DNA of 64,000 nt from a virus (lineage: Duplodnaviria; Heunggongvirae; Uroviricota; Caudoviricetes), in the IMG/VR virus record IMGVR_UViG_2925891887_000001, one strand, 5' to 3'. The notes under the pieces were generated by a model. It saw only the letters and a program-made list of their open reading frames with translations. It had not been told where the DNA came from and ran no database searches. Both the position numbers and the translations under genes were made by a program. Every line of letters begins with the position of its first letter. Within the stretch, counting starts at the first letter, position 1. Shown here piece after piece: positions 3,570-58,516 of the stretch.

Positions 3570-3633
3570 AAACCTCTTTCCTTAGTGCCTTTTGTATGTT
3601 ATTTGGCTATTATAATAAGTAAGTGATTACTTA

Positions 3634-4332
3634 ATGGATTGTAGCAATAAAATGGATGTAAAAATCACGATTTTGCAGGTTGATGTTGCCAACCTTCGCC
3701 CGAATACCTGGAACACCAATTCGGTTGGTGCGCAGAATTTCGAAAAACTGAAAGGTTCTATCGAAAAATTGGGCTTTTTTAAGCCAATTTTGGCTCGTGA
3801 ACTTGAAGATGGATTTTTTGAAATCCTCGGCGGCGAACATCGCTGGCGTGCCGCTATTGAGCAAGGAATTTCAACGGTTCCGGTGCTTTCTGTGGGCAAA
3901 ATTAGCGATGTCGTAGCTAAACAGATGTCACTGGTGGACAACGAGCGATACGGTGAAGACGACCAAATCGCATTGCAACGCTTCATTGAAGAAATTCAGT
4001 CAGAGCTTGACTATCAACTGTCTGAAATCGCCCCGTATGACGACGAAATCTCGATGGTTTTAGCAAAAGAGGCGGCAATCGACCTTGAAGCACTGGAGGC
4101 GTTGTCTCGTGGTAGTGATGAGCCTGTCGATACCGACAAACGAGAGAAAACCGAACGTGTGGGTGCGGAACATCAGACCATGCGCTTCAAAGTAACTTTC
4201 GATGCGTCAGATCGTGTTGCAGAAACCATAAAAAACATCATTAAAGAGCAGGCTATTAACACCGGTAATGAAATGGAGAACGCTGGTGAGGCTCTGGTGT
4301 GGCTGGTCGACTACTACAAGGAGCGTATGTAA
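3634..4332 (+). CDS. ParB-like nuclease domain protein
   Basis: N-terminal ParB/Srx-like segment (ARELEDGFFEILGGEHRWRAAIEQGISTVPV); start could instead be the ATG near 3652. Confidence 0.55.
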   Translation: MDCSNKMDVKITILQVDVANLRPNTWNTNSVGAQNFEKLKGSIEKLGFFKPILARELEDGFFEILGGEHRWRAAIEQGISTVPVLSVGKISDVVAKQMSLVDNERYGEDDQIALQRFIEEIQSELDYQLSEIAPYDDEISMVLAKEAAIDLEALEALSRGSDEPVDTDKREKTERVGAEHQTMRFKVTFDASDRVAETIKNIIKEQAINTGNEMENAGEALVWLVDYYKERM

Positions 4333-5000
4333 TGACCAAAAAGTTTGAAATCGTATATCGCGACCCGGCAGATCTTATTCCCTATGAGATGAATGCCAAA
4401 AAGCATGATGAACAGCAGATCCGAGATCTGGCCGCAGCCATTAAAAAGCGCGGATTTGACCAGCCAATTACGGTCGATAAGAACGACGTAATTATTACTG
4501 GCCACGGCCGCCGTGAGGCTGCAATTTTTGCTGGACTTGAGCGCGTACCGGTTATTGTTCGCGATGATCTCAGTGATGACGAGGTTCGTGCGAAGCGCCT
4601 TGAAGATAACCGACTTGCCAGCATTGATTACGATGCAATTAAGCTACAGAAAGAGCTTGAGTCGCTTGTTCTGGACGATATCGAGGTTTTCGGCTTTGAA
4701 GAGCGTGAGTTGAATGTTCTCGTTGGCAGTATGACAGAAGAAATGGACACCGACTCGCTAGTTATCGATCTTGGCGAAGAAACTAAACGACAGAAGGATG
4801 AACACACCGTGATCAGTCGTGAAGTTGCAGCGGAAGAAGTACGTGTTGTCGACGTATTGGGCTTTAAAACGCTCCCTGCTGGCTCTGCCATTGTTGTTGG
4901 TGATTTGCTTGCCCACATGGAAGAAATGACGGGAGAAAGCGGGGTAGACGCATTTGTGGCATATGCGGAGAAGATCTCTTCCGGGGAGATGGCTGCATGA
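4332..5000 (+). CDS. ParB-like nuclease domain protein (second copy)
   Basis: ParB N-terminal-like motif (ITGHGRREAAIFAGLERVPVIV); ATG overlaps upstream stop (TAATG) with AAGGAG upstream; track ORF begins 4299. Confidence 0.55.
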   Translation: MTKKFEIVYRDPADLIPYEMNAKKHDEQQIRDLAAAIKKRGFDQPITVDKNDVIITGHGRREAAIFAGLERVPVIVRDDLSDDEVRAKRLEDNRLASIDYDAIKLQKELESLVLDDIEVFGFEERELNVLVGSMTEEMDTDSLVIDLGEETKRQKDEHTVISREVAAEEVRVVDVLGFKTLPAGSAIVVGDLLAHMEEMTGESGVDAFVAYAEKISSGEMAA

Positions 5001-5635
5001 GCAAATACATCATCAACGTATCGTTTCAGACACGCGTAAATAAAACCACGCGCACGTTGGAAATCGCTGAGTCGTTCGGGCTTGGCCTGGACGAAAAAGA
5101 GTGGACGCTTTACGACAATCTGGAGCTGGAAGTGAAGCAGGGCGATGTGGTGTACATTACCGGCCAATCCGGTTCCGGCAAATCCGTTGTGCTGCGCGAG
5201 CTGCAACACCAGATGAAGGATGAAGGGCTATCTGTGGCCTCCATCGATGATTTTACCTTCGATAATGAGGTTAACGTCATTGACCAACTGGGCAAAACTA
5301 CCAGTGATGCGCTTGGGTTGTTATCTATGGCTGGTCTGAACGATGCATATCTGTTTGTTCGCAAGCCTTCTGAAATGTCAGACGGTCAGAAATATCGTCT
5401 CAAGATTGCCAAACTGATTGAGTCAGGCGCTAAAGTGTGGGCTGCTGACGAGTTCGGCGCTGTTCTCGACCGTGTAACCGCTCAGGTTGTGGCATCTAAC
5501 CTCCAGCGTGCCGCTCGAAAGGTTGGTGCGACGGTAATGGTGGCGACGACTCACGAAGACCTGAAGAACGCGCTGCGCCCGGATATGCAGATCACCAAGC
5601 ACTACAAAGAACGCGTGAAGGTGGAATATGCCTGA
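4997..5635 (+). CDS. ABC-type ATPase domain protein
   Basis: Walker A GQSGSGKS, ABC signature-like SDGQKYRL, Walker B VWAADEFGAVLD, H-loop TTHE; stand-alone 212 aa. Confidence 0.6.
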   Translation: MSKYIINVSFQTRVNKTTRTLEIAESFGLGLDEKEWTLYDNLELEVKQGDVVYITGQSGSGKSVVLRELQHQMKDEGLSVASIDDFTFDNEVNVIDQLGKTTSDALGLLSMAGLNDAYLFVRKPSEMSDGQKYRLKIAKLIESGAKVWAADEFGAVLDRVTAQVVASNLQRAARKVGATVMVATTHEDLKNALRPDMQITKHYKERVKVEYA

Positions 5636-6778: not shown

Positions 6779-6787
6779 GGATTTGCC

Positions 6788-7054
6788 ATGACGTTAACCG
6801 ATAAACAAAAGGACATCATCAAAACGCTCAATCTCGGTTATGAGCGAGGTCATCTACTTGACCTGGACGAATTGCTTGAAGTTTTGCCGTACAAGACAAC
6901 CAAGCAAAGTATCCAGTTCTCAATTCGCGCTCTGATAAAAAAGGGGCTGGTGGAGAAAGGGCATACGCGCCAACGCAGTGACAATCGCTATCACCGCCGA
7001 ACTCTTGGGTTAACTACTTTAGGTCGAGCCAAAGCGAAGTTACTGGTGATGTAA
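6788..7054 (+). CDS. Small putative DNA-binding protein
   Basis: 88 aa, basic C-terminus, winged-helix-like segment (SIQFSIRALIKKGLVEKG). Confidence 0.35.
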   Translation: MTLTDKQKDIIKTLNLGYERGHLLDLDELLEVLPYKTTKQSIQFSIRALIKKGLVEKGHTRQRSDNRYHRRTLGLTTLGRAKAKLLVM

Positions 7055-7135
7055 TCGGTCTGGGAGCTTATTTAAAGACCTGCTTCTGTATATATAAATA
7101 ATAAGTAACTTATTAAATATATACGGAAGCAGGCT
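7055..7135. repeat. Near-perfect palindrome (~58 bp core); one copy of an inverted pair with 41728-41810
   Basis: gacctgcttctgtatatataaataataagtaacttattaaatatatacggaagcaggc; reverse complement recurs at 41728-41785 with about 2 mismatches, and the tttaaaga flank is also shared. Confidence 0.8.
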
Positions 7136-7249
7136 TCGTAAGACATGCCAGACCTAATTAAACACCCCAGAAAACAAGTTGGTTAGCAGATGCAGTAAAC
7201 AAGTTGTTTTAGAGCGCATGGACGCGCTCTGTGTGTTTTAGAGGGATCT

Positions 7250-7882: not shown

Positions 7883-9138
7883 TGGCAATCCCGTCCTCGC
7901 TCAGTCTTGTGCAACTGCATTCTGGACAGATGAAAGTCTTCCAGTCTCCGCATCGATTTAAAGTTGTTTGTGCTGGTCGACGCTGGGGAAAATCCCGGTT
8001 GTCGATCTCCACTATTATTCGTGCGGCGGCAAAGGAAAAAAAGCAAAGGGTCTGGTATGTCGCTCCTACTTACCAGATGGCTCGCCAGATTTTGTGGGAC
8101 GATCTACAGGAAGTTCTGCCTCGTAAGTGGGTTAGGAAAAAGAACGACACCACGATGACAATCGTGTTGAAGAACGGTTCGGAGATCGCCCTCAAAGGTG
8201 CTGATAAGCCTGACACTCTGCGCGGCGTAGCGTTGCATTTTGTAGTGCTTGATGAATTTCAGGATATGAAGGCTGACACCTGGTACAAGGTGTTACGACC
8301 TACTCTTTCATCGACACGCGGCGGTGCACTGATCATTGGTACGCCAAAAGGCTTCTCGGAATTTCACAAACTGTGGACTATAGGCCAGAACGTAGAGCTG
8401 CAAAGAAAGGGACAGTGGAAGAGCTGGCAGTTTGTAACTGCCGATTCTCCGTTTGTGCCTACGGCGGAAATTGAAGCTGCTAAGAACGATATGGACCCCA
8501 AATCGTTCGCTCAGGAGTACCTGGCCAGCTTTGAGAACATGTCCGGGCGCGTTTACTACCCGTTCGATCGTAACGTGCATGTAAAACCGCTTCAGTTCAA
8601 CCCTCGGTTGCCTATATGGGTAGGGCAGGACTTCAACATTGACCCGATGTCTTCAGTAATTTTGCAACCTCAGCCAAATGGTGAGCTATGGGCAATTGAT
8701 GAATTGGTGCTCTTTTCCTCTAACACGGCAGAAGTTTGTGATGAGCTTGAGAGACGCTTCTGGCGCTGGAAATCACAGGTAACGGTATTTCCAGATCCGG
8801 CAGGTGCTTATCGCCAACATGCTCGTGGGGAGTCTGACGTAGACATATTCAAAGAGAAGGGATTCTTACGTGTCGATTATTCGAAAAAGCACCCGCCAAT
8901 TGCGGATCGTGTTAATGCTGTTAACCGAATGCTGATGTCCGCATCTGGAGATATCCGGCTGTATATCGATCCGAAGTGCAAGCATTTGATTGATTCACTG
9001 GAAAAAGTCATCTACAAGCCTGGAACACGAGATATGGATAAGACAGGTGGCATTGAGCATAGTGCAGACGCATTGGGCTATCCAGTACATCGTAGGTATC
9101 CAGTCAAAAACCGTGTTATTCTTGGTGGTTCTCGATAG
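7882..9138 (+). CDS. Terminase large subunit
   Basis: Walker A VVCAGRRWGKS, Walker B-like VLDEFQDM, C-terminal nuclease-like region; 418 aa. Confidence 0.85.
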   Translation: MAIPSSLSLVQLHSGQMKVFQSPHRFKVVCAGRRWGKSRLSISTIIRAAAKEKKQRVWYVAPTYQMARQILWDDLQEVLPRKWVRKKNDTTMTIVLKNGSEIALKGADKPDTLRGVALHFVVLDEFQDMKADTWYKVLRPTLSSTRGGALIIGTPKGFSEFHKLWTIGQNVELQRKGQWKSWQFVTADSPFVPTAEIEAAKNDMDPKSFAQEYLASFENMSGRVYYPFDRNVHVKPLQFNPRLPIWVGQDFNIDPMSSVILQPQPNGELWAIDELVLFSSNTAEVCDELERRFWRWKSQVTVFPDPAGAYRQHARGESDVDIFKEKGFLRVDYSKKHPPIADRVNAVNRMLMSASGDIRLYIDPKCKHLIDSLEKVIYKPGTRDMDKTGGIEHSADALGYPVHRRYPVKNRVILGGSR

Positions 9139-9164
9139 GTAAGTAATTATCTAAGGTTATTCAA

Positions 9165-10739
9165 ATGGAATTGAACGACAAACAAATTAAGGATCTGGTG
9201 GCGCGACGCCACCCGGAATACGAAAAGAAAAAAGAACATTGGGACTTCCTCGCCAGCACTTACGCTGGCGGGCGTGGTTGGTTTACAGACAATATCTTTC
9301 GTTACTTTAAAGAGGGAGATCAGGAGTTTAAGGAGCGAGTTGAACGTGCTTATCGCTTCAACCACACTCGTGAGGTGGTAAACCTCATCAACAAATATCT
9401 CTTTAAAGAAGACATTCATAGAAATATCGAAGAGGCACCAGAGCAGATCCGCAATTTCTGGAAACGTGCGACTCGCCAGAATGCCTCTATTGACTCATTT
9501 ATGGCCGCTATTGATTTGCAGTCGTCTATTTACGGTCGCATATGGGTTGTTGTCGATAGCACGATGAGTGGTGATGTTGAGTCAGTAGCTGACGAGAAAA
9601 AGAAAGATGCTCGCGCCTACGCCTACTGGATTTCACCTCAGCAAATGCTGGATGTGGCATGGGACGACGACGGGAATATGTTGTGGGCGTTAATTGTGGA
9701 AGTCGCTCGTGATGACGCAGATCCTTTTACTTCTACAGGTCAGGAATACCAACGTTATCGTCTGTGGACACAAAACGAGTGGTATCTGTTCCGTGAGGAA
9801 GTGAAGAAGGGCGCTGGTGGAGCAGGTCGCCGTCAGGCAAAAGTTATTTTAGAGGATAGCGGTGAGCATAATCTCGGCGTAGTTCCTGTGTTTCCTGTTG
9901 ATTGTATTGGAGAAAGTGAATCACCGTATTTCAGCCCATCGTTGATCGATGATATCGCTTATCTTGATCGTGCGGTTGCAAACTATCTGTCAAACCTTGA
10001 TGCCATTATTCAGGATCAGACATTTAGCCAGTTGGCTATACCGGTACAGTCGCTTTTACCTGGTGATGAAAACCACACTAAAGTGCTTGAAATGGGCACA
10101 AAGCGAGTCTTCACCTACGATTCTGAAGGTGGAAACCAGCCGTTTTATCTGTCACCAGACCCGAAACAAGCTCAGATGATCATCACTACGATTAAGACGG
10201 TGATTAACGAAATCTACCATTCAGTTGGTGTAGCTGGTGAGCGAACGAAGCAGGACAACGCACAGGGAATCGATAATTCATCTGGTGCCGCAAAAATGTA
10301 TGACTTCCAGCGTGTAAATAGCTTGCTTGTCACAAAAGCAGAGCGTCTGGAAAGGGCTGAACGCCAAATCATGCTACTGGTTGCGAAATGGATGGGGGCA
10401 GATCTGGACGAAGACCACTCTTTAATTGCGTATCCAGAAAGTTTCGATATTCGTGGCCTTACTGATGAATTTTCTGTTGCCGAGAAACTGTCATTACTTC
10501 AGGCACCGGACTCTGTACGTCGTCACCAGATGGAAATGCTTATTGAGAAGATTTTCCCGAACATTACTGAGGCGATGAAAAAGGAATTTGATAAAGATCT
10601 CTTGAATTTTCCTCCAAAAAATGATCTAAATACCCTTGAAAATAAGTCAGTACTTACTTATGATCGTGGTGCAGCCCAAGAAAGCGGGCAAGATCAACCC
10701 CGAGGGAATGGGGACTCATCTACTCAAGAGAACGAGTGA
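9165..10739 (+). CDS. Portal protein
   Basis: 524-aa protein directly after terminase; size and position typical of portal. Confidence 0.7.
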   Translation: MELNDKQIKDLVARRHPEYEKKKEHWDFLASTYAGGRGWFTDNIFRYFKEGDQEFKERVERAYRFNHTREVVNLINKYLFKEDIHRNIEEAPEQIRNFWKRATRQNASIDSFMAAIDLQSSIYGRIWVVVDSTMSGDVESVADEKKKDARAYAYWISPQQMLDVAWDDDGNMLWALIVEVARDDADPFTSTGQEYQRYRLWTQNEWYLFREEVKKGAGGAGRRQAKVILEDSGEHNLGVVPVFPVDCIGESESPYFSPSLIDDIAYLDRAVANYLSNLDAIIQDQTFSQLAIPVQSLLPGDENHTKVLEMGTKRVFTYDSEGGNQPFYLSPDPKQAQMIITTIKTVINEIYHSVGVAGERTKQDNAQGIDNSSGAAKMYDFQRVNSLLVTKAERLERAERQIMLLVAKWMGADLDEDHSLIAYPESFDIRGLTDEFSVAEKLSLLQAPDSVRRHQMEMLIEKIFPNITEAMKKEFDKDLLNFPPKNDLNTLENKSVLTYDRGAAQESGQDQPRGNGDSSTQENE

Positions 10740-12549: not shown

Positions 12550-12583
12550 TCAGTGTTGTAGATAAGTAATTATCTATGTTTAA

Positions 12584-12609
12584 GGGTGGGCTATACGCCC
12601 ACCCTTTTT
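12584..12609 (+). terminator. Rho-independent terminator after capsid gene
   Basis: gggtgggc-tata-gcccaccc stem-loop followed by TTTTT. Confidence 0.75.
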
Positions 12610-12622
12610 GTAGGAGCAAGAA

Positions 12623-15744: not shown

Positions 15745-16128
15745 GTGTTTATTGAAGCGTTTGCAAGTTTGATGCAGAAGGCAAAGATTGGCACGGTCGG
15801 GACTGACATTTTCTGTCACTACTTGCCTGCCAATGTGAAATCTGGCGTCCTGCTTATTAACCCAAATACCGGTATCAGCATCGATCATGAGCTACAGGGC
15901 TTTTACCACGAATCATTCACAATAATTGTGCGTGGTTCGTCAATTACTACGACGGTTGAGAAAGCCAATAAAATCATTGAGATGTTTCCAGTAGAGGAAA
16001 CGGAATCTGGTGGTGTTTATTTTCGACTGGTACGACCGATGGCGATGCCAATCATTTATCCCAAAAATGATGGGGCATTAATAGAAGCAGGCATTCCTAT
16101 TGAATTTGCTGGCTATTTATTGAATTAA
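15745..16128 (+). CDS. Tail terminator/completion protein (putative)
   Basis: Track ORF from 15622; probable GTG start after GAGAGG RBS, coupled to upstream stop. Confidence 0.4.
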   Translation: MFIEAFASLMQKAKIGTVGTDIFCHYLPANVKSGVLLINPNTGISIDHELQGFYHESFTIIVRGSSITTTVEKANKIIEMFPVEETESGGVYFRLVRPMAMPIIYPKNDGALIEAGIPIEFAGYLLN

Positions 16129-16202
16129 CTCAATTGGTAAGTATATACTTACTATTAGCGCAATGAATGCGTAGAATTAACGGAAAAAGGAGTTTTCCAT
16201 CA

Positions 16203-22261: not shown

Positions 22262-22459
22262 CTATCGACTGCCCCGACCGGGGCAGTCTCACAAGGATGT
22301 GAGATGGAAAGACAAACGTTTAATTGGTATCCAGATTACGAATCTGAAAAGAGCGTAAAACCGAATGTAACGGTACTTAATTTTGGTGATGACTACGAGC
22401 AGCGACAGGCTCAAGGTCTTAATCGTATTAAAGAAGAATGGTCGGGTAATGACTCCAAC

Positions 22460-22963
22460 TTATTGATAGTGTTTTATGTTCAGATAATGCCCGATGACTT
22501 TGTCATGCAGCTCCACCGATTTTGAGAACGACAGCGACTTCCGTCCCAGCCGTGCCAGGTGCTGCCTCAGATTCAGGTTATGCCGCTCAATTCGCTGCGT
22601 ATATCGCTTGCTGATTACGTGCAGCTTTCCCTTCAGGCGGGATTCATACAGCGGCCAGCCATCCGTCATCCATATCACCACGTCAAAGGGTGACAGCAGG
22701 CTCATAAGACGCCCCAGCGTCGCCATAGTGCGTTCACCGAATACGTGCGCAACAACCGTCTTCCGGAGCCTGTCATACGCGTAAAACAGCCAGCGCTGGC
22801 GCGATTTAGCCCCGACATAGCCCCACTGTTCGTCCATTTCCGCGCAGACGATGACGTCACTGCCCGGCTGTATGCGCGAGGTTACCGACTGCGGCCTGAG
22901 TTTTTTAAGTGACGTAAAATCGTGTTGAGGCCAACGCCCATAATGCGGGCAGTTGCCCGGCAT
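22460..22963 (-). CDS. insB: IS1 InsB (transposase C-terminal ORF)
   Basis: 167-aa translation ...[36 protein letters not shown]... recognised as IS1 InsB. Confidence 0.95.
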
Positions 22964-41718: not shown

Positions 41719-41727
41719 TAGATTATG

Positions 41728-41810
41728 ACCTGCTTCCGTATGTATTTAATAAGTTACTTATTATTTGTATATACAGAAGCAGGTCTTTTAAAGACGCCCA
41801 CCAGAACAAG
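41728..41810. repeat. Near-perfect palindrome; inverted copy of element at 7055-7135
   Basis: gacctgcttccgtatgtatttaataagttacttattatttgtatatacagaagcaggtc; reverse complement matches 7078-7135 with about 2 mismatches. Confidence 0.8.
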
Positions 41811-41890
41811 TCCCTTCCGTTTCCACTTCCAAAAACTGCCACCAGTCGCTATCATCCGCTCATTGTGATAAGTAAGTAACTACCTACCAG

Positions 41891-44105: not shown

Positions 44106-45287
44106 ATGAGCCTTTATGTTATATCAACATTTAGGTTGGTCACAATATTGCCTGTTAAAAGTGGAATTATCGTGAGCGAGCTGAAAGAGCTAATTGCCGA
44201 ATTAGATTTTGAACAATGGTTGGATACTGAAGGTATCGTTTATCGACGTGGAGGCGTGAGTGCTCGCGGTCGTGAAGTGAATATCAAAGAGTGTCCGGTA
44301 TGCGGCAGCTCCAACTGGAAGGTATATTTCAATCTGACCAGTGGCGTCGGCAAATGCTTCGCTGGTGATCATCCCGAAGAGATTCAGTTCAATAAGCTGG
44401 TCTTCCTCAAGCACTACAGCGGTAAATCACGACGACAGTTCGAGGAATATGTGCAGAACGCTCTTCTTTCCCAGGGGTGGACACCAAAGAAAGAAGAGCT
44501 AGTGCTTGCAAGCACAGTCGAGTTAGAGGGGCCAGTTGCACTCCCTCGTCATTACGAGCTTCCTATAGATGGCCGTCTTCCAGACTATCTGGTTGAACGA
44601 AACATATCACCTGAAATGGCAAAGTATTTTGACCTACGATACTGCGTCGAAGGCAAGCACGCTTATGTAGATCCGTATACAGATCAGGTAAAAGGGCAGA
44701 TATTCGATATGCGAATACTGATACCGGTTTACGATCTGGATGGGGTAATGAAGACATTTCAGGGACGAGACATTACCGGTACAGCAGAACGCCGCTACCT
44801 CTTTCCTATGCAGCTTCCAGCTTCAGGTAAATTTCTCTACAACGGCCATAATGCAGTCGGCAAACAGACTGTAGTTGTCTGTGAGGGTTCGTTCGATGTT
44901 ATGGGGGTCAAACGAGCTATTTTCGACGAAGAAACATTACGTGATTACGTGGAGCCAATAGGAACGTTCGGGATGCATCTATCTGGCAACACCACTCAGG
45001 ATGCAGAAGATCAGTTGGGCGCGTTCCTGACGCTCAAGGCGCGTGGATTACGTAATGTGATCATGATGTGGGATAGTGAAAAGCAAGCTATACGAAACAC
45101 GATGGCCGCAGCCAGGCGACTGACCAGTATTGGTCTTAATGTCAAAGTTGCGTGTTTGGGCGAGGAAGGACTCGACCCCGGCGATGCGACACCGGGGCAG
45201 ATTATCAAAGCCTACTATTGCGCAAAACCTTATTCACGACAGCTTGAACTTTTAAGCAAGGTAAAAGGTATAGCAGCATTAGTTTGA
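44106..45287 (+). CDS. DNA primase (zinc finger + TOPRIM)
   Basis: Zn-binding-like CPVCGSS...KCFAGDH; TOPRIM motifs VVVCEGSFDVMGV and MWDSE; track ORF starts 44034 but includes a hairpin, so start is probably 44106 or 44173. Confidence 0.7.
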   Translation: MSLYVISTFRLVTILPVKSGIIVSELKELIAELDFEQWLDTEGIVYRRGGVSARGREVNIKECPVCGSSNWKVYFNLTSGVGKCFAGDHPEEIQFNKLVFLKHYSGKSRRQFEEYVQNALLSQGWTPKKEELVLASTVELEGPVALPRHYELPIDGRLPDYLVERNISPEMAKYFDLRYCVEGKHAYVDPYTDQVKGQIFDMRILIPVYDLDGVMKTFQGRDITGTAERRYLFPMQLPASGKFLYNGHNAVGKQTVVVCEGSFDVMGVKRAIFDEETLRDYVEPIGTFGMHLSGNTTQDAEDQLGAFLTLKARGLRNVIMMWDSEKQAIRNTMAAARRLTSIGLNVKVACLGEEGLDPGDATPGQIIKAYYCAKPYSRQLELLSKVKGIAALV

Positions 45288-46532
45288 ACCAGTATTAGTC
45301 ACGTAAACATTGACCGAAAATGATTTAACTTCTGTGTTGAAGTTGTCAGTCATTACCGCGAGGTAGGCATTCTTGGTATCTCTGAATTGCTTCAGGATGA
45401 TTTGAACGTTATCGGTGCAAACAAACGAGGTAGCCAGATTGCCTCCTTTCTCTGAAAAATCCTTCAAGAAGGTGCAGTCAACTTTGCCATCATTAGCGGT
45501 GAAGACGGCATCATCACCCTGCCAGGTAAATGTTGCGTTAACGCCTTTATCAATGGATTTAGCAATAAGTCGCTGAGTGTCAGATTTGGCATTTTGCTGT
45601 TTTGAAGGCGAACGGAACGTACCTTTTGCTTTCATTGCAGCAACGTTTTCGCAGCCCGTTTCGTCATCTTTATCGCAAGCAGCTTGGTAAAGCTCTGATG
45701 CTTTCCGATAATCCTGTTTGACGCCCAATCCCTTAAGATACATGTAACCAAGGTGGTTCATGGCATAATCATTTCCTAAGCTGATTGCTTGTTCTAAAAG
45801 ACTTCTGGCCTTCGAATAGTCTTTTTTTATACCTTCTCCATGCATCAACTTGTATCCAAGCGCGCTCATGGCGTTATTATTTCCTAATTCAGCTGCTTTC
45901 AAGTACCACTTAATTGCCTCTTTATTGTTGCGCTTAACAGCAACACCATCGTCGTACATAGAGCCTAGCCCATACATTCCTGCGGCATTTCCACTATCCG
46001 CAGCCTTTTTATAAGATTTAAATGCTTTCTTGTAATCTTTCGGAACTCCCTTACCGTATTGATATAAATATCCCATATAGGCAAGCGAAGGTATATCACC
46101 AGCTTCTACTGCTAGTTTGTGATATTTTAAAGCAGCTTCTGGGTCCTCCTTTCCAGTCCAACCTCGTTCGTATATAACGGCAAGATTATGGTAAGCACTG
46201 CCGTTGCGAGCATTTCCTGCTAGTTTGTAGTACTCAACGGCCTTATTTAGATCTTTATCTACTCCCTTCCCAATTGTGTACATAACCCCAAGCGCATAAT
46301 ATGCTACTTTATCTCCCTTTTCTGCGGCGAGATCGATCCACTTCTTGGCCTCTACTAAATCCTCATCAAAGCCATTAGCCCCATCCAAATAATTTGTCCC
46401 TAACGCACTTTGTGCTGTGGTATCTCCTGCGGTGGCGGCGTCGATCAGCGTTTGTTTATTATCTGCGTTAACGTATCCAGGGCCGAAAAGCAAAGCTAAT
46501 GCCAGCAACGATGAAGGTTTTATGAGTTTCAT
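45279..46532 (-). CDS. Sel1-repeat (TPR-like) secreted protein
   Basis: Signal peptide (MKLIKPSSLLALALLFGPGYVNA), then at least 8 Sel1-like repeats (A..YxLGxMYxxGxGVxxDxxxAxxWYxKAA); only minus-strand gene in this block. Confidence 0.7.
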   Translation of the reverse strand: MKLIKPSSLLALALLFGPGYVNADNKQTLIDAATAGDTTAQSALGTNYLDGANGFDEDLVEAKKWIDLAAEKGDKVAYYALGVMYTIGKGVDKDLNKAVEYYKLAGNARNGSAYHNLAVIYERGWTGKEDPEAALKYHKLAVEAGDIPSLAYMGYLYQYGKGVPKDYKKAFKSYKKAADSGNAAGMYGLGSMYDDGVAVKRNNKEAIKWYLKAAELGNNNAMSALGYKLMHGEGIKKDYSKARSLLEQAISLGNDYAMNHLGYMYLKGLGVKQDYRKASELYQAACDKDDETGCENVAAMKAKGTFRSPSKQQNAKSDTQRLIAKSIDKGVNATFTWQGDDAVFTANDGKVDCTFLKDFSEKGGNLATSFVCTDNVQIILKQFRDTKNAYLAVMTDNFNTEVKSFSVNVYVTNTGSN

Positions 46533-47173: not shown

Positions 47174-47298
47174 AGGTGAATGCTGGGCTGAGGATATGCC
47201 CGGCATCTTAGTATAAAGAACTATTGCACCTAAAATGATAAGTAGATACATACTTAAGTTTTTGTAAGAATACTTTCATCCGTTAGCTAGGAGTTGGT

Positions 47299-48081: not shown

Positions 48082-48148
48082 GCTCTCTGTGTGTCGTTTT
48101 TTACGCAAATAATGATAAGTAAGCACAAGATTATTTCTGGCGGTAATT

Positions 48149-50749: not shown

Positions 50750-51527
50750 AAACATATTGATAAGTATTTACTTACTTATCTTTTGTGTATAAGATGACTT
50801 TGTTTTCGTTGAGACGCGACTGTTTGAACTTAAATACAAGTGCAAACGAAGAAGTCTATCTGGCAGTAGCCTAATAAGCCAAACACCAGCGAGGTCAGTT
50901 TCCAGCCTCGTTACCGAAATGGGACACACTGAGCGAGTGTGATTGCAGAACGCAGGAGGGAACATTCATGTTCCCTCCGATGAAGTAACAGAATGGGCGG
51001 TTGGTATATTTTCAACTCCATATGACTCCCGGATTCTTAGCCACTGACCGCCCATCCTGTTACGTCATTTTGTTCAATTATGTCGTTTATACTGGGTTAA
51101 AAAGCGGCGACGTAGCCCGGCTGGTATGGTTAGCCAGCACACAACGTTGAGGCCATTACATTTTTATCAATTCTAAGGTTCTATTCACAGAGATACCGGC
51201 GAGCGTTGATATGTAACATGTTGGGCAAACATTCAATCGGAGTAGTGGCCTCAACGTTGTGAAGACGGGATTGTTGTGTAGGTTTAACCACTGTTGCCAT
51301 TGGTGCCTGTTTTCACAACAAATGATTCCATACATCACATTGTATAAATTACAAAGTAGGTGCTGTCCTCAGAAACATCATCTACTTAAAGATTTTGCCT
51401 TCTACTATTGAGCGAAGTCGAAAGCGTCTGGCACTAACGAAAAGTGCAAGTAGCGGTGCGTTTCCTGGCAGAAACTAAACCGTCGCGATTGGCACTGTTG
51501 AGTAATAAATACTGGCAGTGCTGAATT

Positions 51528-52373: not shown

Positions 52374-53636
52374 TTACTTTGCATAGTCGCCCAATTTTAA
52401 TATTTCGCGCTTATATTCATTAACCATGCTACTGGATTCAGTATAAATTCGATTTAAAAGATTATCGTTATCTTTATTTTCATTTATCTTAATTAGTGCT
52501 AATTTATATTCATAGTCATCAAATGCCACAATTAAATGGTGGCCTGGGATTATATCTTCGTCACTCTTAAAGTATATATCTTCAAGTATGTAATCTAGTT
52601 GATTAGATTTTCTTTTCTCGATGTAATCTTCAGCCATAGCTATTACATCATTCCTGTCATTTAACCTGTTTTTTTCGGAAGGCACATCTTCGTAATGTTG
52701 CACGATTGAACAACCAATAAGGCGTGGGATGTAAACGTCAAAATGAGTAACTCTATCATTCGCGGTTTTAAGTAGTTCCTCAAAGTAGTTTCTTACATGT
52801 AAAGGCAACTTCTCAAAGTAATCATTAATTATAGGAGAACAAGGAGTTTTATAATTCATAAGAACCGACGGTACGAGCTTTGGGTGTCGAAACATCCAGT
52901 CCCTTTTAACGTCCGATGGAACATAATAACTTTTAATGATATTATCAAAATAATTTATCATTCGAGATTTGAATATTTTGTTGAATCTAAGGTTTATGAA
53001 TGTATCCAGATAAGGCATATTTGAATAAGCATCATCAAAAAATATTTCATCATTGAAAAAATCATATTTATTCAATAAACAACACAGTTTTTCCGAATTA
53101 ATATGTTCACAATAATCGATTTTTAATCCAAAGATAGCAATGATCAACTTCATCTGAGGTGGGATTTTAAAAATTAATTGTGACACATACGCTCTTTTTT
53201 CCTTGAGACATTCCCCATCAATATAAAATGAACCATCCACATACTCAAATATATTAATAATATGCTTCACATACTGTATTACCTCATGCTGTCTTACCAA
53301 TGGATAATATAGTCTATGTAACTCATCGCTGTTTAAATTAATTTTGTGTTTATCGATAATTTGTTTTGCAAGAAGACATAACTCATCATGTTGATTTAAT
53401 AAGGAATCAAACCATTGTTTAAATGCACTCTTTCGCATTTCGAACAATGATTCAGTTGTTAATTGAAGGGCTGAAAAAGCTGCTTTTGCACTTTTTCTCG
53501 CTTCGTAGGCATTCCATGCTGTTGCTATAAAAGCAAATGCTGTAGCCAATGTTCCAACAGTTTGACCATTTAAAACAACCCAATCCCAAAAAATGACGGT
53601 GAGCAGTAGTATAATAATGAAAATTAAAAAAGGCAT
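52374..53636 (-). CDS. Hypothetical membrane protein, low-GC cargo gene
   Basis: 420 aa; N-terminal hydrophobic segments (FLIFIIILLLTVIFWDWVV; LATAFAFIATAW); strongly AT-rich; only minus-strand gene here. Confidence 0.5.
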   Translation of the reverse strand: MPFLIFIIILLLTVIFWDWVVLNGQTVGTLATAFAFIATAWNAYEARKSAKAAFSALQLTTESLFEMRKSAFKQWFDSLLNQHDELCLLAKQIIDKHKINLNSDELHRLYYPLVRQHEVIQYVKHIINIFEYVDGSFYIDGECLKEKRAYVSQLIFKIPPQMKLIIAIFGLKIDYCEHINSEKLCCLLNKYDFFNDEIFFDDAYSNMPYLDTFINLRFNKIFKSRMINYFDNIIKSYYVPSDVKRDWMFRHPKLVPSVLMNYKTPCSPIINDYFEKLPLHVRNYFEELLKTANDRVTHFDVYIPRLIGCSIVQHYEDVPSEKNRLNDRNDVIAMAEDYIEKRKSNQLDYILEDIYFKSDEDIIPGHHLIVAFDDYEYKLALIKINENKDNDNLLNRIYTESSSMVNEYKREILKLGDYAK

Positions 53637-53810
53637 GTATGTATTTCACTCTACTAACTATAAAATATTAGGCTAATGTTAACCAAACAATGCCTTAATT
53701 AATAGATTGATCGAGGCTTTAATAGCTTTATAATGCAGACTTTAAAGATAAGTATGCACATACCTATCTTCTTTGTAAGTAAAGTTGCATATCAATTCTA
53801 TGAGGTAACA

Positions 53811-54056: not shown

Positions 54057-54060
54057 TTTT

Positions 54061-54083: not shown

Positions 54084-54266
54084 ATTCCCACCAAACTCAC
54101 TCCCGTTTCCCTTAAAATTCAAAAAACAACGTCAAAATGATTCCATACCTACTATGTATGGAATCATTACTGAAAATGAGTTACTTTTACTCTTGATCCT
54201 ATAAGAATCTATGCCTAATATACTGTTTACTTATACAGTAAATCGGCGTAACTCGGTGATTGTCAT

Positions 54267-55370
54267 ATGAAAAATAGCTTTGACAGAGCACGCGCTGCGG
54301 AGAACACCTCAAAAGAGGCGATTGAGTATCTCGAAAGAGCATCTCAAATGCAGGCCGTTATGATCTCGCAGGTCAGCAATGACATGAGATTCTCGGACGC
54401 ATTCATGTTATTCACTCGCTTATCTCTGCTGATAACAAGACGTCGGCCAGAGATCGCTGTTCATTGTATTTTGATACATGTTTTGCCGCACATTGCCGAT
54501 GTAAAAGTAAGTGACATTAATAGGTTCATGGTGAACCAACTGGTCAACCCACTAATACTGGATGGCAAAATTGTTATGGGCCGCCGCGTTTTCTCTCTGA
54601 TGAAGCAGTTCCTTAGCTGGTGCGCCTTCCAGGGGATGATAGACGTGTCACCGTTAAACGATATGTCACTAAACAAAGTTGCCGGTGGCGCAAAGCCCAC
54701 ACCTCGCGAGCGGAAGCTGACCGACGCAGAGGTATGGGTGTTCTGGAATATATGGGACTACTTCAATGTGTGCGCTGGTACAAAATGGGCGGCCAGGCTG
54801 TGTCTTGTATCCGCAAGACGACCTGACGAAGTACTGCGGGCTAAAAAAAGTGAGTTCAATCTTAAGCGTGGGGTTTGGAATCAAGGCAAGAGGAACAAAT
54901 CTGCCCGTGAGCATTCGCTGCCTTTAAGCACATTAATGCGCACATGTATTGAAGAGTTGTTCGAATACGGTAAAGGCAGCCAGTGGCTCGTGCCTTCGAA
55001 TAAAAAAATCGGGAAAGACCTTCCTATGTCTAAAGTGGCAATAGCCCAGGCATTACGTCGTATCCTGGAACGACCAGAACTGATGGAGCTTGAGCCATTT
55101 ACACCCCGAGACTTGCGCCGTACTGCGCGTAGTTACTTCCCAGCATTAGGCATAAGCCAGGAGGTCTCACGCAAAATCATGAACCACAGTCTTGAGGGGA
55201 TAGATCGAGTCTACGACCGGCACGATTATATGGACGAGATGCGAGACGCCTTAGAAAGTTTCTCGACGTACATCGCATCAATCGTAGAGCAACCGGATTT
55301 AGACGAAATTGACCACAAATTCAAGGGAGATCGTCTATCAACAGAGCTTATTCGTGTAAATTTTTCATAG
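54267..55370 (+). CDS. Tyrosine recombinase / integrase family protein
   Basis: C-terminal catalytic region with conserved Arg (LVSARRPDEV), box II-like PRDLRRTARSY, then NHSLEGIDRVYDRHDY with candidate catalytic Tyr; 367 aa. Confidence 0.65.
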   Translation: MKNSFDRARAAENTSKEAIEYLERASQMQAVMISQVSNDMRFSDAFMLFTRLSLLITRRRPEIAVHCILIHVLPHIADVKVSDINRFMVNQLVNPLILDGKIVMGRRVFSLMKQFLSWCAFQGMIDVSPLNDMSLNKVAGGAKPTPRERKLTDAEVWVFWNIWDYFNVCAGTKWAARLCLVSARRPDEVLRAKKSEFNLKRGVWNQGKRNKSAREHSLPLSTLMRTCIEELFEYGKGSQWLVPSNKKIGKDLPMSKVAIAQALRRILERPELMELEPFTPRDLRRTARSYFPALGISQEVSRKIMNHSLEGIDRVYDRHDYMDEMRDALESFSTYIASIVEQPDLDEIDHKFKGDRLSTELIRVNFS

Positions 55371-55751
55371 AGACTTTATGGCCTCAACAACCTTTTGTGA
55401 TGCGCCTTTCTCTTTACCGAATCGCTCGTTATATGCAGCAAGAACCTGTTTTTCGTCCTCGTTAAGAGGAGCGGTGCCTTCTTTGTATAAAAATGCTGCG
55501 AGTTCAGGTTGGCGTTCTTCCAGCACCATCATCATAAGACGACTTGGCTCAATACCCAGCGCCAGCGCCAACGGACGAACCTTATCGATAGGCAAAGGAA
55601 TTTTGCCACTTTTAATTAAAGAAAGGTTGTTGGCATTTTTATAACCAATAAGTCTGGCTATTTGGGCCTGACTCATAGGTGAGGATTCAATCAGCCCTGC
55701 GATAAAAGCGGCATAGCGACTTTCTATAAATTCAATCTTGTTGTCAGACAT
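55365..55751 (-). CDS. XRE-family HTH transcriptional regulator (repressor-like)
   Basis: HTH segment SQAQIARLIGYKNANNLSLIKSG; 128 aa; divergent from 56002 ORF, with palindrome GGTAAGTGCTTACC about 32 bp upstream of its start. Confidence 0.65.
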   Translation of the reverse strand: MSDNKIEFIESRYAAFIAGLIESSPMSQAQIARLIGYKNANNLSLIKSGKIPLPIDKVRPLALALGIEPSRLMMMVLEERQPELAAFLYKEGTAPLNEDEKQVLAAYNERFGKEKGASQKVVEAIKSL

Positions 55752-56001
55752 TGTTACAACCTTTGCGCGTTCAATTCTCTCTGGTAAGTGCTTACCGATA
55801 TTACATCAAAGGTTAGGGTTGTAAAGCTATTATCATTTTTTCGATAGGCACTTAAAAGACCGGTTAAAGGCCATTGCACGGAGAAAAATTAGCCCAAAAC
55901 AGGTAAGAAAATTAACTTGCATATGATATGAATGTATTCAGTATTGATATAAATTTTAGTAGTATTCCTTACCATAGTATAAGTTAGAATGGATTGATTG
56001 A

Positions 56002-56214
56002 ATGAACACCACTATTTCCAGCCTAATCGCTCTTGAGATCGGACACGTACAGAAATTAGCTGATGAGTGTGTAGCTGACATCCTCACCGATCTACCGAAT
56101 GAGCAGATTCAGGTTGGTGTGAATGACACAACTGGCTTTATATTCGAACTTAACAACAAACGCTTCACGCTTCTCAATATCGGCTCCGGGTCTTTAGCCG
56201 TCAGAATCTGTTAA
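56002..56214 (+). CDS. Hypothetical small protein
   Basis: 70-aa ORF divergent from XRE regulator; followed by hairpin at about 56229-56263. Confidence 0.3.
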   Translation: MNTTISSLIALEIGHVQKLADECVADILTDLPNEQIQVGVNDTTGFIFELNNKRFTLLNIGSGSLAVRIC

Positions 56215-56312
56215 CCCCTCTTCTCCCTGCGCGAATGGCTTAGTTCCCTGTTCGCGCAGTGCTACATTAAACACACTAGTAAATAATTTGTTTTCATAAC
56301 AAAGGATTAGCC

Positions 56313-58421
56313 ATGTCTAAAAAACGTTCCATCAAAGAGGTTCAGGACTTCCGTGACAGTGTAAAACGAGTAGTCGCTCTCCTTTCAGGTAAAAACATCC
56401 CTGTTGCAGAACGAGGGGACGACGCTTATGTACGCTATAACGATGATGGAGAGCCAATTCTCGTAAACATCCCATCAATCCCGGATAACGCAACACCGGC
56501 ATTGATGAATGCTGTGCGCGGATTTCTCGATCATGAGGTTGCTCACATTTTGTTTACCGATATTCGTGTGTCCAACAAAATGAGAGAAAAAGGACGCGTT
56601 CCTTCCTGGTCGCTATGGAATGCCTTAGAAGACGTGTTCATCGAGCGAAAAATGGGTCAGGTCTTTAACGGAACAAGACGTAATCTGATGGCAACTCAGC
56701 GCCTTATAATCGAAAAAGTCTTTAAACCAAAGGCTTCAGAGGCTATTGCTTATTGTGGCAAAGATCAGCGCGCGCTTTTTCTAAACTTCTTTCTCTGTCC
56801 GGTTGTAAGAGCCTGGGATGGCCAAGCACCGTTCGTAGATTTCATGGATGAACATTGGCCTGTCATTGAGAAACCAATTTCATTATTAAAAGAACATGGT
56901 ATCGATGTGGCCGTGCGTAACATGTCTTGCACCGAGGATTGTGTAAAGGTGGCTGCGACCATAGCTAAGATCCTCAAAGACACTGAAAGTGAAAGCAAAG
57001 GTAAGGAGTCAGCTCCGGGAAAAACTTCCGATCCTTCAGACGCTGACCAGACGGATGCCTCTGGAGAAAACAATGAAGACAACGAAGATCATGAGACTCC
57101 CTCAGTGTTAGATAATCACAAATCTATCAAATCAGAATCACATAGTAAGTACAAACATGATAATAACAACAGTGATGATTCAGATAATTCTGAATCATCA
57201 GAAACAATATTCGATGATACAGAAAATGATAAAGAGGTATCAGATTCTGATGCTTCTGATAACGCGGCGTCAGAATCATTAACCGCTGACCACGAAAAAA
57301 GAAAAACGACAGAAGACGGCTCTTCAGATATCCCAACTCCGTCAAAAATGAGTCTGGAAGAGGCTTTAGAGGAGCTGGATAGCATAGAAGATGAAGTCGG
57401 AGGCATGACAGAAGATGCTCTATCCGAAACGATTAAAAGCGAGTTAACAGAAAGCTCGAAAAGCGAATACAGGCCATACAATCGCTCATACGACTTCATC
57501 GGCTCGATTGATCAGGCAGAAGCCCATATCAAACGGCTTATTAAAACATTCTCCGATATTGATTTGGGAGGATATCCAATCAGCCGCTATCGCATCGTTC
57601 CTGAAGGCAACCAGCTCTTCGACAAATATATTGAAAAGCATCTTTCGTCAGGTGTTTCGTCGACGCTGGCAAAAGACCTGGAGCGAGCAATAGCAAGCAG
57701 AAACAGAGTTCAGTTTATACCGGGCCAGCGTCGGGGGCGCATTCATGGTTCTAGTATCTACAGATTAGCAATGAATGATGCTCGCGTGTTTCGTAAAAAA
57801 GAAGAATCTAAAGCCGTTAACGCCTGTGTTCAACAAGTGATTGATTTATCAGGTTCAATGAGTGGTATAACGATTAAACTGGCTCTTGCAAGTGCATATA
57901 CCATCGCCGATGCCCTTGATCGAATAAATGTTCCCAACATTATCACTGGCTTCACTACATTTGGTAGTCATATGGCGGCAGGAGAACTTAAGGCTGTCAA
58001 GTATGAGTTCTCTCGCTTTGAATCTTTAATGCTACCTATCATCAAAAATTGGAATGAAAAGGTAAATTCTCGCGAAGTTCGCTCACGTATGGGGTGCGTA
58101 GGCTACACATTCCCACTTCTTAATAACGTGGATGGTGAAAGCATAGCCAGCCTTGCATCGTTATTTTCCGGTCGCATGGAGGACAGGAAGATCATGCTTG
58201 TTCTGAGTGATGGCGCGCCGTGGGCTGTTGGGAGAGGTTTTGACGCTCATTTGCGTTCAGTTGCGAAGCAAATTGAAACGCAGACTGATATTGATTTGAT
58301 GGCAATTGGCATCATGACTGACGCACCGGAGAGATTTTACTCAAATCATGCCCTGGTAACGAGCGTTGATAGTCTTGGTTCATCTGTAGTTACTGAACTA
58401 TCTCGTATCATTTTAAAGTGA
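56313..58421 (+). CDS. von Willebrand factor A domain protein (CobT-like) with long acidic linker
   Basis: MIDAS-type motif DLSGSMSG in C-terminal VWA region; central acidic, Ser/Asp/Glu-rich low-complexity stretch; 702 aa. Confidence 0.65.
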   Translation: MSKKRSIKEVQDFRDSVKRVVALLSGKNIPVAERGDDAYVRYNDDGEPILVNIPSIPDNATPALMNAVRGFLDHEVAHILFTDIRVSNKMREKGRVPSWSLWNALEDVFIERKMGQVFNGTRRNLMATQRLIIEKVFKPKASEAIAYCGKDQRALFLNFFLCPVVRAWDGQAPFVDFMDEHWPVIEKPISLLKEHGIDVAVRNMSCTEDCVKVAATIAKILKDTESESKGKESAPGKTSDPSDADQTDASGENNEDNEDHETPSVLDNHKSIKSESHSKYKHDNNNSDDSDNSESSETIFDDTENDKEVSDSDASDNAASESLTADHEKRKTTEDGSSDIPTPSKMSLEEALEELDSIEDEVGGMTEDALSETIKSELTESSKSEYRPYNRSYDFIGSIDQAEAHIKRLIKTFSDIDLGGYPISRYRIVPEGNQLFDKYIEKHLSSGVSSTLAKDLERAIASRNRVQFIPGQRRGRIHGSSIYRLAMNDARVFRKKEESKAVNACVQQVIDLSGSMSGITIKLALASAYTIADALDRINVPNIITGFTTFGSHMAAGELKAVKYEFSRFESLMLPIIKNWNEKVNSREVRSRMGCVGYTFPLLNNVDGESIASLASLFSGRMEDRKIMLVLSDGAPWAVGRGFDAHLRSVAKQIETQTDIDLMAIGIMTDAPERFYSNHALVTSVDSLGSSVVTELSRIILK

Positions 58422-58516
58422 ACAAAACAGCCTTAACGATAAGTAACCACTTACGATATATAATGATATATTTATATAAGAAGTTGAACGCTCATTAGAG
58501 AACAAAGGAAAAACGC

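Follow-up and report, generated by a model that had tools for sequence, protein, structure and literature searches.

Dispersed palindromes as candidate operators of an element-wide repressor in SSU5-like phage-plasmids

Gene layout and definition of the palindrome

The DNA analysed here is a 64-kb stretch (the window, to whose full length all positions refer) of an SSU5-like phage-plasmid of Escherichia coli, which carries a family of palindromic sites dispersed through its intergenic spaces. The closest match of the window is 'Escherichia phage CMS-2020a', with 98% identity. Cyrano, the plasmid pLF82 of strain LF82, is colinear with it at ~97% identity, and Salmonella phage SSU5 and Klebsiella elements such as pJN2-26 show ~80% identity. 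The gene layout of the window was read from the Cyrano annotation. An operon on the minus strand with a UvsW-like helicase gene (1–3569) is followed by a plus-strand ParB-like operon, by the packaging, head, tail and lysis genes (7250–37400), and by partition genes located 3′ of the lysis block; the replication genes, the transfer RNA (tRNA) genes, an integrase/XRE module, cobT/cobS-like genes and the gene of DNA polymerase III alpha come after partition. Almost all genes of the window lie on the plus strand.

The sites conform to a 22-bp palindromic consensus, (A/G)ATA(A/G)GTAAGT-ACTTAC(C/T)TAT(C/T), which was read from the window sites together with those of Cyrano, SSU5 and pJN2-26, and which is stretched to 26–28 bp by AT flanks that are symmetric too. 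An unbiased comparison of k-mers between intergenic and coding DNA places TAAGTA first among the intergenic-enriched hexamers, with 26 of its 40 occurrences (p ~1e-18) in the intergenic DNA that makes up 8.5% of the window; the enriched 8-mers are headed by ATAAGTAA and GATAAGTA. A plain count of consensus matches (at least 15 of 22 positions) gives 27 in the window and 5.0 in shuffles. Both tests serve as independent checks on a symmetric 22-bp matrix (22 bits) that was built from three relatives, one of them ~97% identical to the window. At a threshold of at least 11 bits, the matrix finds 16 sites in the window vs 0.42 in dinucleotide shuffles of the whole window, which bears out the proposal of a dispersed family made in a first-pass annotation of this DNA. 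Within intergenic DNA the figures are 13 sites vs 0.20 when intergenic DNA alone is shuffled, so AT-richness does not explain the enrichment.

Sites start between 5 nucleotides (nt) inside and ~30 nt past the preceding plus-strand stop codon, and 0–60 nt separate them from the next start. The whole genomes of Cyrano, SSU5 and pJN2-26 hold 28–31 sites each at the same threshold, and 25–29 per genome are centred in the 12–13% of the sequence that is intergenic. They occupy short intergenic spaces across both early and late regions, and stand ahead of replication, recombination and nucleotide-metabolism units, not of late units alone. The first-pass annotation had described about 16 palindromes, almost all intergenic, placed upstream of plus-strand starts and often just after the previous stop. 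This placement is confirmed by the distances given above, and 13 of the 16 sites that reach the threshold are intergenic; 14 of the 17 copies originally listed are members of the family. Two copies had been overlooked, at 10641 and 57107, both of them intragenic.

The three other listed copies were rejected. The one at 37513 stays under 5 bits and lacks an orthologous counterpart, and those at 7101 and 41749 are the AT-rich tips of ~60-nt near-perfect hairpins that form a separate family, GACCTGCTTCTGTATA...TATACAGAAGCAGGTC. These long hairpins are found at 7075–7136 and 41727–41785 of the window, with folding energies of -30.5 and -28.3 kcal/mol (z -8 and -7), and a third copy lies at Cyrano 78098. 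Each genome has three, which lie at module boundaries: one ahead of terS, one ahead of the replication module and one behind a methyltransferase gene. They are kept in SSU5 and pJN2-26, and a T run follows the 41749 copy. They are probably strong, perhaps bidirectional, terminators or insulators.

Conservation across lineages

Orthologous junctions carry sites in E. coli, Salmonella, Klebsiella and the Yersinia pestis plasmid pMT, while the surrounding intergenic DNA diverges. The shared positions include the TerL/portal junction, the interior of the portal gene, the gap past the capsid gene, the gap before the tail-tube region, the end of tail gene M and the approach to the holin gene; shared sites also precede each replication and nucleotide-metabolism unit. 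Versions of the motif extend to more distant elements, the relatedness of the Enterobacteriaceae, Acinetobacter and Aeromonas groups having been described before (PMC7969092). In Acinetobacter baumannii phage-plasmids, whose terminase is 59% identical, the motif reads TATTAGTAAGCGCTTACTAATA and occurs, at 17 or more matches out of 22, at 28 sites vs 0.4 in shuffles, with 25 of the 28 intergenic. In a plasmid of Aeromonas jandaei (terminase 53% identical) it reads GATCAGTAAAYRTTTACTGATC, with 46 matches vs 11. The core AGTAA(G/A)-NN-(C/T)TTACT is common to the enteric, Acinetobacter and Aeromonas elements and is therefore as old as the lineage, and the outer bases of the half-sites vary by lineage. 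Exact matches to the central 16-mer in IMG/VR fall in SSU5-like contigs in 32 of 36 cases, the remaining 4 being isolated chance matches.

Symmetry of the site and neighbouring hairpins

The palindrome is best read as duplex DNA recognised by a dimeric protein, and not as a hairpin, because its mirror positions do not covary. At none of the 11 mirror pairs does the number of Watson–Crick combinations depart from that expected of independent columns, and the variable mirror pair 5/18 is occupied by A-T in 16 cases, A-C in 16, G-C in 15 and G-T in 12. The hairpins that follow the sites at 16132 and 23424 do show compensatory changes, so the covariation test has power in this data set. The centres of the half-sites lie one helical turn apart and the halves are independently conserved. 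Relative to gene direction, left and right halves score alike (p = 0.12, 0.76 and 0.27). The sequence TAT(C/T)AT at the site edge is equally common in the mirror image and on the gene side; a directional -10 element at the gene-proximal edge was rejected for this reason, and the hexamer was assigned to the 26-bp symmetric site.

Hairpins rich in GC are located 5–9 nt past four late-region sites, at 12583–12610, 16157–16171, 23454–23476 and 30366–30386. Their stems differ between genera by compensatory changes, and the loop ACAGGATGT of the one after gene M is conserved. A clear T tract is found only at the post-capsid hairpin. These elements may act as 5′ stabilisers, 3′ stabilisers or partial terminators.

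Member sites

Each site is given with its score on the symmetric matrix, and promoter candidates are predictions from sequence. The first site, AATAAGTAAGTGATTACTTAAT (3614–3635, 24.7 bits), lies in the divergent gap between the minus-strand UvsW-like helicase operon and the plus-strand ParB-like operon, and has orthologues in Cyrano, SSU5, pJN2-26 and Y. pestis pMT. At the TerL/portal junction, GATAGGTAAGTAATTATCTAAG (9134–9155, 22.3 bits) overlaps the TerL stop codon and is placed 9 nt before the portal ATG, with a conserved -10 candidate, TGn-TATTCT, 16 nt upstream; a site at this junction is common to SSU5, Klebsiella, Yersinia, Acinetobacter and Aeromonas. The site within the portal gene, AATAAGTCAGTACTTACTTATG (10641–10662, 25.9 bits), has a near-identical sequence across three genera and overlaps the promoter candidate TTGAAA (10636–10641)-17-TATGAT (10659–10664). 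Past the stop of the major capsid gene, a site of 19.3 bits (12557–12578) is followed by the intrinsic terminator hairpin at 12583–12610.

Four further sites are found in the tail and lysis region. The centre of AATTGGTAAGTATATACTTACT (16132–16153, 22.5 bits) is itself a -10 candidate, TATACT (16144–16149), with TTGAAT at 16120–16125; this promoter candidate is kept in three genera, and the stem of the small hairpin that follows covaries between genera. After tail gene M, GATAAGTAAGTACTAATTTACT (23424–23445, 24.9 bits) coincides with TGGATA-17-TATCAT, which extends over 23422–23450, and precedes the hairpin at 23454–23476. The gap between the tail protein J and tail-fibre genes contains AATAGGTAGGTATATACTTAAT (30343–30364, 21.4 bits) and then the hairpin GGCGGGC...GCCCGCC. 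Upstream of the holin gene, GATAGGTAAGTACACACCTACA (35868–35889, 21.2 bits) has a conserved extended -10 element, TGATATAAA, ~17–25 nt downstream.

Directly ahead of the first gene of the replication module lies GATAAGTAAGTAACTACCTACC (41867–41888, 24.5 bits), with a conserved weak promoter candidate, TTCCAA (41827–41832)-17-TATCAT (41850–41855), upstream of it. The site GATAAGTAGATACATACTTAAG (47237–47258, 19.1 bits) is 4 nt upstream of the extended -10 element TGTAAGAAT (47263–47271), which is conserved in three genera. A degenerate site, GATAAGTAAGCACAAGATTATT (48114–48135, 13.3 bits), has a good left half and a poor right half, and its orthologues score 15.7 bits in Cyrano and 13.0 bits in pJN2-26. 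The best site of the window, GATAAGTATTTACTTACTTATC (50759–50780, 27.6 bits), overlaps the promoter candidate TTTACT (50767–50772)-17-TAAGAT (50790–50795). Directly 3′ of this site and its promoter candidate, at the head of a 780-bp leader of the tRNA cluster, is a noncoding stretch of ~100 nt (50796–50900) with almost 100% identity between E. coli, Salmonella and Klebsiella, against ~80% for coding DNA. This stretch has no Rfam match and varies too little for a fold test; it may represent a small RNA, a leader or a region bound by protein.

The remaining sites surround the integrase/XRE module and the cobT/cobS-like genes. The site GATAAGTATGCACATACCTATC (53747–53768, 25.2 bits) lies past the best sigma70 match of the region, TTGATC-16-TATAAT (53707–53734), which scores 10/12 in a promoter scan and puts the site at ~+6 to +27. 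A weak site with a perfect 14-bp core, GGTAAGTGCTTACC (55779–55800, 8.6 bits; 16.6 bits in the Klebsiella orthologue), covers the minus-strand promoter candidate of the XRE gene (TTTACA at 55825–55820 and TAATAT at 55803–55798). A probable degenerate intragenic site (57107–57128, 14.1 bits) is found in the cobT-like gene, and the orthologous positions are stronger (20.9 bits in SSU5 and 25.0 bits in pJN2-26). The last site, GATAAGTAACCACTTACGATAT (58438–58459, 13.6 bits), is upstream of the cobS/MoxR-like gene and has -10 candidates downstream.

Relation of the sites to promoters

Conserved pairs of -35 and -10 elements surround the sites in the direction of the genes, in three genera and at many registers. 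Candidate -10 elements occur at site positions -16, -2, 8, 13, 19, 22 and 29–36, and the sites span -41 to +27 relative to the promoters that they overlap. The right edge of the site supplies the -10 element, preceded at 17 nt by TTGAAA, in the portal gene (10641) and at Cyrano 57445; the -10 element occupies the centre at 16132 (TTGAAT-18-TATACT) and the left half at Cyrano 59398 (TTTACA-17-TAGTAT), where the site abuts the start codon. The site supplies the -35 element, with the -10 element after it, at 23424 and at Cyrano 67882 (TTGATA-17-TAACAT). It is positioned at -41 to -20, ahead of the extended -10 element TGTAAGAAT, at 47237 and Cyrano 84619. Finally, the site is downstream of the predicted start at 53747, where the promoter ends 13 nt before it, and at 41867.

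The mirror image of the symmetric site provides a control for promoter direction. The best promoter score is greater in the gene direction at 18 of 18, 16 of 17 and 13 of 16 informative sites in the three genomes (p = 6e-5, 5e-4 and 0.03). A factor bound to the sites must act over the -35 element, the spacer, the -10 element and the first 25 transcribed bases, and would therefore be a repressor, not an activator. The first-pass annotation had left a choice between operators and element-specific promoters distinct from those of sigma70. The former alternative is supported by a symmetric site of ~30 copies per genome with silent genes behind it. The latter is not supported, since the sites are embedded in gene-directed, sigma70-like promoters and lack a fixed position of the -10 element.

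Expression in the LF82 lysogen and in macrophages

Per-gene values from RNA sequencing (RNA-seq) are available for Cyrano in a published study of LF82 (PMC9928086, supplementary file 2). Almost every gene that immediately follows a site stays at background in the lysogen, also where the promoter is near-consensus (CYRAN_4, CYRAN_56 and CYRAN_60). The genes that are on in this state are toxin–antitoxin pairs, parA, repA, the XRE gene and a few others, none of which has a strong site ahead. Expression in the lysogen drops by 3–8 log2 units over the 41867 junction, where a long hairpin is also located. In the LF82 data, a step up from the portal gene to the two following genes accompanies the site at 10641.

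In macrophages at 6 h, expression jumps by 2.5–3.7 log2 exactly at the Cyrano sites 9017, 57445 and 59398, and by 1.2 log2 at the intragenic portal site. Across 24 sites induction decreases as the site score rises (rho -0.40, p 0.05), a marginal trend whose direction fits that expected for a repressor and is opposite to that expected for an activator. In one RNA-seq condition the change amounts to -1.03 log2 over site junctions vs +0.35 over others (p = 0.005), with terminator hairpins co-occurring at several of the former.

Candidate binding proteins

Among the proteins that could bind the sites, the XRE protein ranks first and a winged-helix protein second, with room left for an unrecognised factor. 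The XRE-type helix-turn-helix (HTH) protein has 128 amino acids and is encoded on the minus strand at 55365–55751. It belongs to PHROG 8 (E 7e-12), and Pfam HTH_19, HTH_37 and HTH_3 match it below their cut-offs. Its AlphaFold2 model, with a mean predicted local distance difference test score of 72, resembles Stl, C-proteins, SinR and the 434 repressor, and contains a five-helix HTH DNA-binding domain of the XRE/Cro type. Comparison of the model with C.BclI, C.AhdI, SinR and the 434 repressor by Foldseek gives target-normalised template-modelling scores of ~0.7–0.8, with E no better than 0.008. In the lysogen the XRE gene is expressed at 10x background, whereas the winged-helix and ParB-like genes are at background.

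The XRE protein is found in 961 plasmid records vs 1036 with the terminase, and occurs in all the enteric genera and in Acinetobacter. All 52 homologues at E <= 0.001 appear to come from the same lineage, with the same hosts and, for the most part, on contigs of ~100–116 kb. The recognition helix, GYKNxNNLSLIKSGKIPLP, is nearly invariant among variants that are 59–79% identical to the window protein. Between enterics and Acinetobacter the residues of this helix differ (K-N-x-N-N-L-S-L and N-Q-N-M-V-S-F, respectively), and so do the half-site bases (GATAGGTAAGT against TATTAGTAAGC). The weak site at 55779 covers the promoter candidate of the XRE gene itself. The XRE protein, already proposed as a binder in the first-pass annotation, is the best candidate for the site-binding repressor, and on these comparisons the chances that it is this repressor seem roughly even.

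The integrase gene converges on the XRE gene and overlaps its 3′ end. A perfect LexA-box pattern, CTGTTTACTTATACAG, is present at 54223–54238, 29 nt upstream of the integrase start; one such match vs 0.9 expected is not significant alone. The integrase gene and a small gene at 56002–56214 are among the most induced in the LF82 macrophage data. The LexA-like box could be an SOS input to the switch.

The winged-helix protein (88 amino acids, plus strand, 6788–7054) is encoded directly upstream of terS. It shows a weak full-length match to the LexA DNA-binding domain, and its fold, predicted as a single-sequence model, is similar to the N-terminal domain of LexA, with a root mean square deviation of 1.4–2.0 Å over 57–58 residues. 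The protein is 84–89% identical in enterics, with homologues at the same position in Acinetobacter (33%) and Aeromonas (42%), and the T-K/R-Q recognition helix is conserved across these lineages. Its gene shows no more than background expression in the lysogen, which excludes the protein as the factor that holds the promoters shut there.

Pfam scans of 20 hypothetical or regulator proteins revealed no other clear regulator except a FljA-like protein (Flag1_repress), which is encoded outside the window. A phage sigma factor was considered and rejected, as the sigma70-family protein of the Acinetobacter elements has no enteric or Aeromonas homologue by tblastn. This protein is encoded between the cobS-like and dnaE genes of the Acinetobacter plasmid NZ_CP016299.1 (30780–31445), with which the palindromic motif is nonetheless shared.

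Interpretation and alternatives

The enrichment, symmetry and conservation of the motif and its overlap with promoter-like sequences are observed here, and the silence of the genes behind sites comes from the published RNA-seq; repression and the identity of the binder are inferred. The palindromes are probably operators through which a single repressor of the phage-plasmid silences the ~100-kb prophage. Each genome would carry ~30 operators, or about one for each transcription unit, to be bound by a dimeric regulator that the element itself encodes, and each operator would lie in, or just downstream of, a promoter read by the host sigma70 RNA polymerase. In the plasmid prophage, the bound protein would occlude these promoters or stop the polymerase just past initiation, such that one factor silences the replication, nucleotide-metabolism, structural and lysis units. 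Loss of the factor would lead to joint de-repression, with the weaker sites responding first, and binding of the XRE repressor to the weak site at its own promoter would result in negative autoregulation. A more specific form of this reading is offered tentatively, as a possibility somewhat short of probable: one XRE-type dimer would silence the whole 100-kb element through ~30 identical palindromic operators in host-type promoters, some of them intra-operon or intragenic, and this circuit would be conserved in elements of the Enterobacteriaceae, with Y. pestis pMT1 and the Salmonella pHCM2/SSU5 group among them, as well as in those of Acinetobacter and Aeromonas.

Several observations weigh against repression by one factor, or against the XRE protein as that factor. 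CYRAN_34, which lies behind a 21-bit site, reaches 44 normalised reads in the lysogen, and the correlation of score with induction is of borderline significance (p = 0.05, n = 24). The promoters were predicted from sequence, and sites rich in AT yield -10-like hexamers on their own. Several late-region sites are followed by a hairpin or terminator 5–9 nt on, and a transcript start at the hairpin base fits these equally with a roadblock. One operator type on early and late units alike leaves temporal control unexplained. Concerning the binder, XRE variants that are 57–59% identical would need one common operator consensus, and searches revealed no XRE homologue in the Aeromonas relative, where the motif and the winged-helix protein are both present. 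Phage SSU5 is without the XRE gene and the integrase, yet retains 28 good sites. The strength of this last argument is reduced by the occurrence of the gene in almost every plasmid-state relative; SSU5 is an isolate of free phage, and we assume it to be a recent deletion derivative that has lost the repressor with its operators still in place.

The alternative that survives best, although we regard it as unlikely, is that the palindromes bind a phage activator, namely the winged-helix protein of 6788–7054, and form with an adjacent -10 element a phage-specific class of promoter similar to the Lpa-dependent late promoters of P1. In its favour, the window holds fewer canonical matches to sigma70 promoters than expected (21 vs 32 and 15 vs 36), and the winged-helix gene occupies the same place as lpa of P1, directly before the packaging genes. 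Its product, with a conserved recognition helix, is the one small DNA-binding protein that was detected in each lineage with the motif, Aeromonas included; its transcript is up in the same macrophage condition as the genes behind sites, and the late-region hairpins after sites could mark transcript 5′ ends. However, the distance from site to -10 element is not fixed but ranges over ~50 bp, some sites lying past the predicted start or over the -10 element, and the near-consensus -35 boxes at several overlapped promoters (TTGAAA, TTTACA and TTGATA) would make an activator unnecessary. Early units carry sites too, not late units alone; a symmetric site with symmetric flanks cannot set direction by itself; and the better sites are induced less, not more.

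It is very improbable that the palindromes are OB- or parS-like sites of the two proteins with ParB N-terminal domains (3634–4332 and 4299–5000), acting as KorB-like regulators or DNA organisers. Both genes are kept in every motif-bearing lineage, the site at 3614 stands ahead of the ParB-like operon itself, and KorB of plasmid RK2 is a precedent, being a ParB-family repressor that uses 12 dispersed palindromic operators. Against this proposal, neither gene rises above background in the lysogen, the state that requires silencing, Pfam finds only the ParB/Srx N-terminal domain and no DNA-binding HTH in their products, and the sites are tied to promoters and not clustered by the partition genes. 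The prospects are slighter still for a transcription factor of the hosts, shared by Enterobacteriaceae, Acinetobacter and Aeromonas. The conservation of the core over hosts of three orders would be in keeping with such a factor, but among viral contigs the central 16-mer is nearly confined to SSU5-like ones (32/36), the outer half-site bases are lineage-specific, as co-evolution with a phage protein would lead one to expect, and the motif does not match the LexA box, of which one isolated likeness occurs elsewhere.

It is scarcely credible that the palindromes act as RNA or single-stranded DNA hairpins (processing sites, transcript stabilisers, terminators or hairpin promoters), for although they can be folded into hairpins of 8–10 bp and, lying between co-oriented genes, would be present in any read-through RNA, A-C mismatches at positions 5/18 are as frequent as A-T or G-C pairs, each arm is conserved in sequence and not in its ability to pair, true hairpins nearby do carry compensatory changes, and a scan against Rfam returned tRNAs as its sole matches and no family for the palindromes.

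Insertions and cargo genes of the window

Several features distinguish this copy of the element from Cyrano. An IS1 copy at ~22445–23212, with 99.6% identity to IS1 in other records, breaks the gene of minor tail protein M, which is unbroken in Cyrano; given this insertion, the element in its present form probably cannot produce tails. The gene of DNA polymerase III alpha is split, residues 1–781 ending at 62275 and residues 778–1087 restarting at 63070. Between the halves lies an HNH/NUMOD3 homing-endonuclease gene (62345–63079), and the insertion (62276–63069) is not present in Cyrano.

Cargo genes of low GC content that are not found in Cyrano at the same places lie at 40012–41718 and, on the minus strand, at 463–951, 45279–46532 and 52374–53636. 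They encode, among others, a KAP-family P-loop NTPase (568 amino acids) and a Sel1-repeat protein with a signal-like N-terminus (417 amino acids); two cargo proteins have no family match. The insertions adjoin palindromic sites or long hairpins, that is, transcription-unit boundaries.

Comparison with known systems and significance

In the literature searched, neither this motif nor a regulatory circuit for elements of the SSU5 type proved to be described; a preprint with many mentions of promoters deals with an unrelated phage-plasmid of 49 kb. The closest functional analogue is the C1 operator network of P1, followed by the operator/stoperator sites of mycobacteriophages. C1 of P1 is a monomeric, non-XRE protein, and its ~20 dispersed operators are asymmetric 17-bp sites. 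Both P1 and the present element are plasmid prophages with a genome of ~100 kb, in which one repressor serves, or here would serve, many dispersed promoter-tied operators; the repressor proteins are unrelated. P1 C1 controls early genes and the decision between lytic and lysogenic growth (PMC10695390). Unlike the present element, where one symmetric type of site stands on early and late units, P1 has a separate late activator, Lpa, for 11 late promoters. The Lpa-dependent promoters resemble the sites described here in combining an inverted repeat with a -10 element and in having the gene of the candidate regulator immediately before the packaging genes. They differ in that their repeat is 9 bp long, has a fixed place and is limited to the 11 late promoters, whereas the register varies here by ~50 bp and early genes are included.

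Cluster A mycobacteriophages (L5, Bxb1 and TipsytheTRex) contain more than 20 copies of the repressor site, in promoters and in short intergenic gaps between co-oriented genes (PMC9283540). Copy number and intergenic placement are thus alike. Stoperators, however, are asymmetric 13-mers that are bound by a monomer and oriented with transcription, in contrast to the symmetric sites of 22–26 bp described here, which have no orientation bias and mostly cover a promoter candidate. The lytic phage D29 is described as having arisen by deletion from a temperate parent (PMC5712189). SSU5, in which the XRE gene is missing and the sites are kept, may be a comparable case.

Two further systems share single properties. 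The LexA regulon resembles the present case in its palindrome of 16–20 bp read by a dimer, in the variable positions over sigma70 promoters and in a de-repression graded by site strength; its sequence is different (CTGT-N8-ACAG is not in the consensus), and the regulon described here is confined to the element. KorB of the IncP plasmid RK2 acts through plasmid-wide palindromic OB operators at varied distances from promoters and silences globally. This protein belongs to the ParB family and is expressed in the plasmid state, unlike the ParB-like genes of the present element, which are silent in the lysogen.

The type of system is known and this example of it is new, from a plasmid group that is large and of medical relevance. 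A terminase of this type is present in more than 1000 PLSDB records, and few large plasmids of E. coli, Klebsiella, Salmonella and Enterobacter are commoner than SSU5-like phage-plasmids; the plague plasmid pMT1 belongs to the group, as do plasmids that carry resistance genes (PMC9600943). An operator sequence at every transcription unit provides a map of these units and a handle on the master regulator, and would also allow the element as a whole to be turned on or off. The reading predicts that SSU5 should not grow on cells that make the XRE protein of the pHCM2 type. If true, it would make these phage-plasmids a Gram-negative, symmetric-site counterpart of the operator/stoperator system of mycobacteriophages, and one immunity specificity would be common to these elements within a host group.

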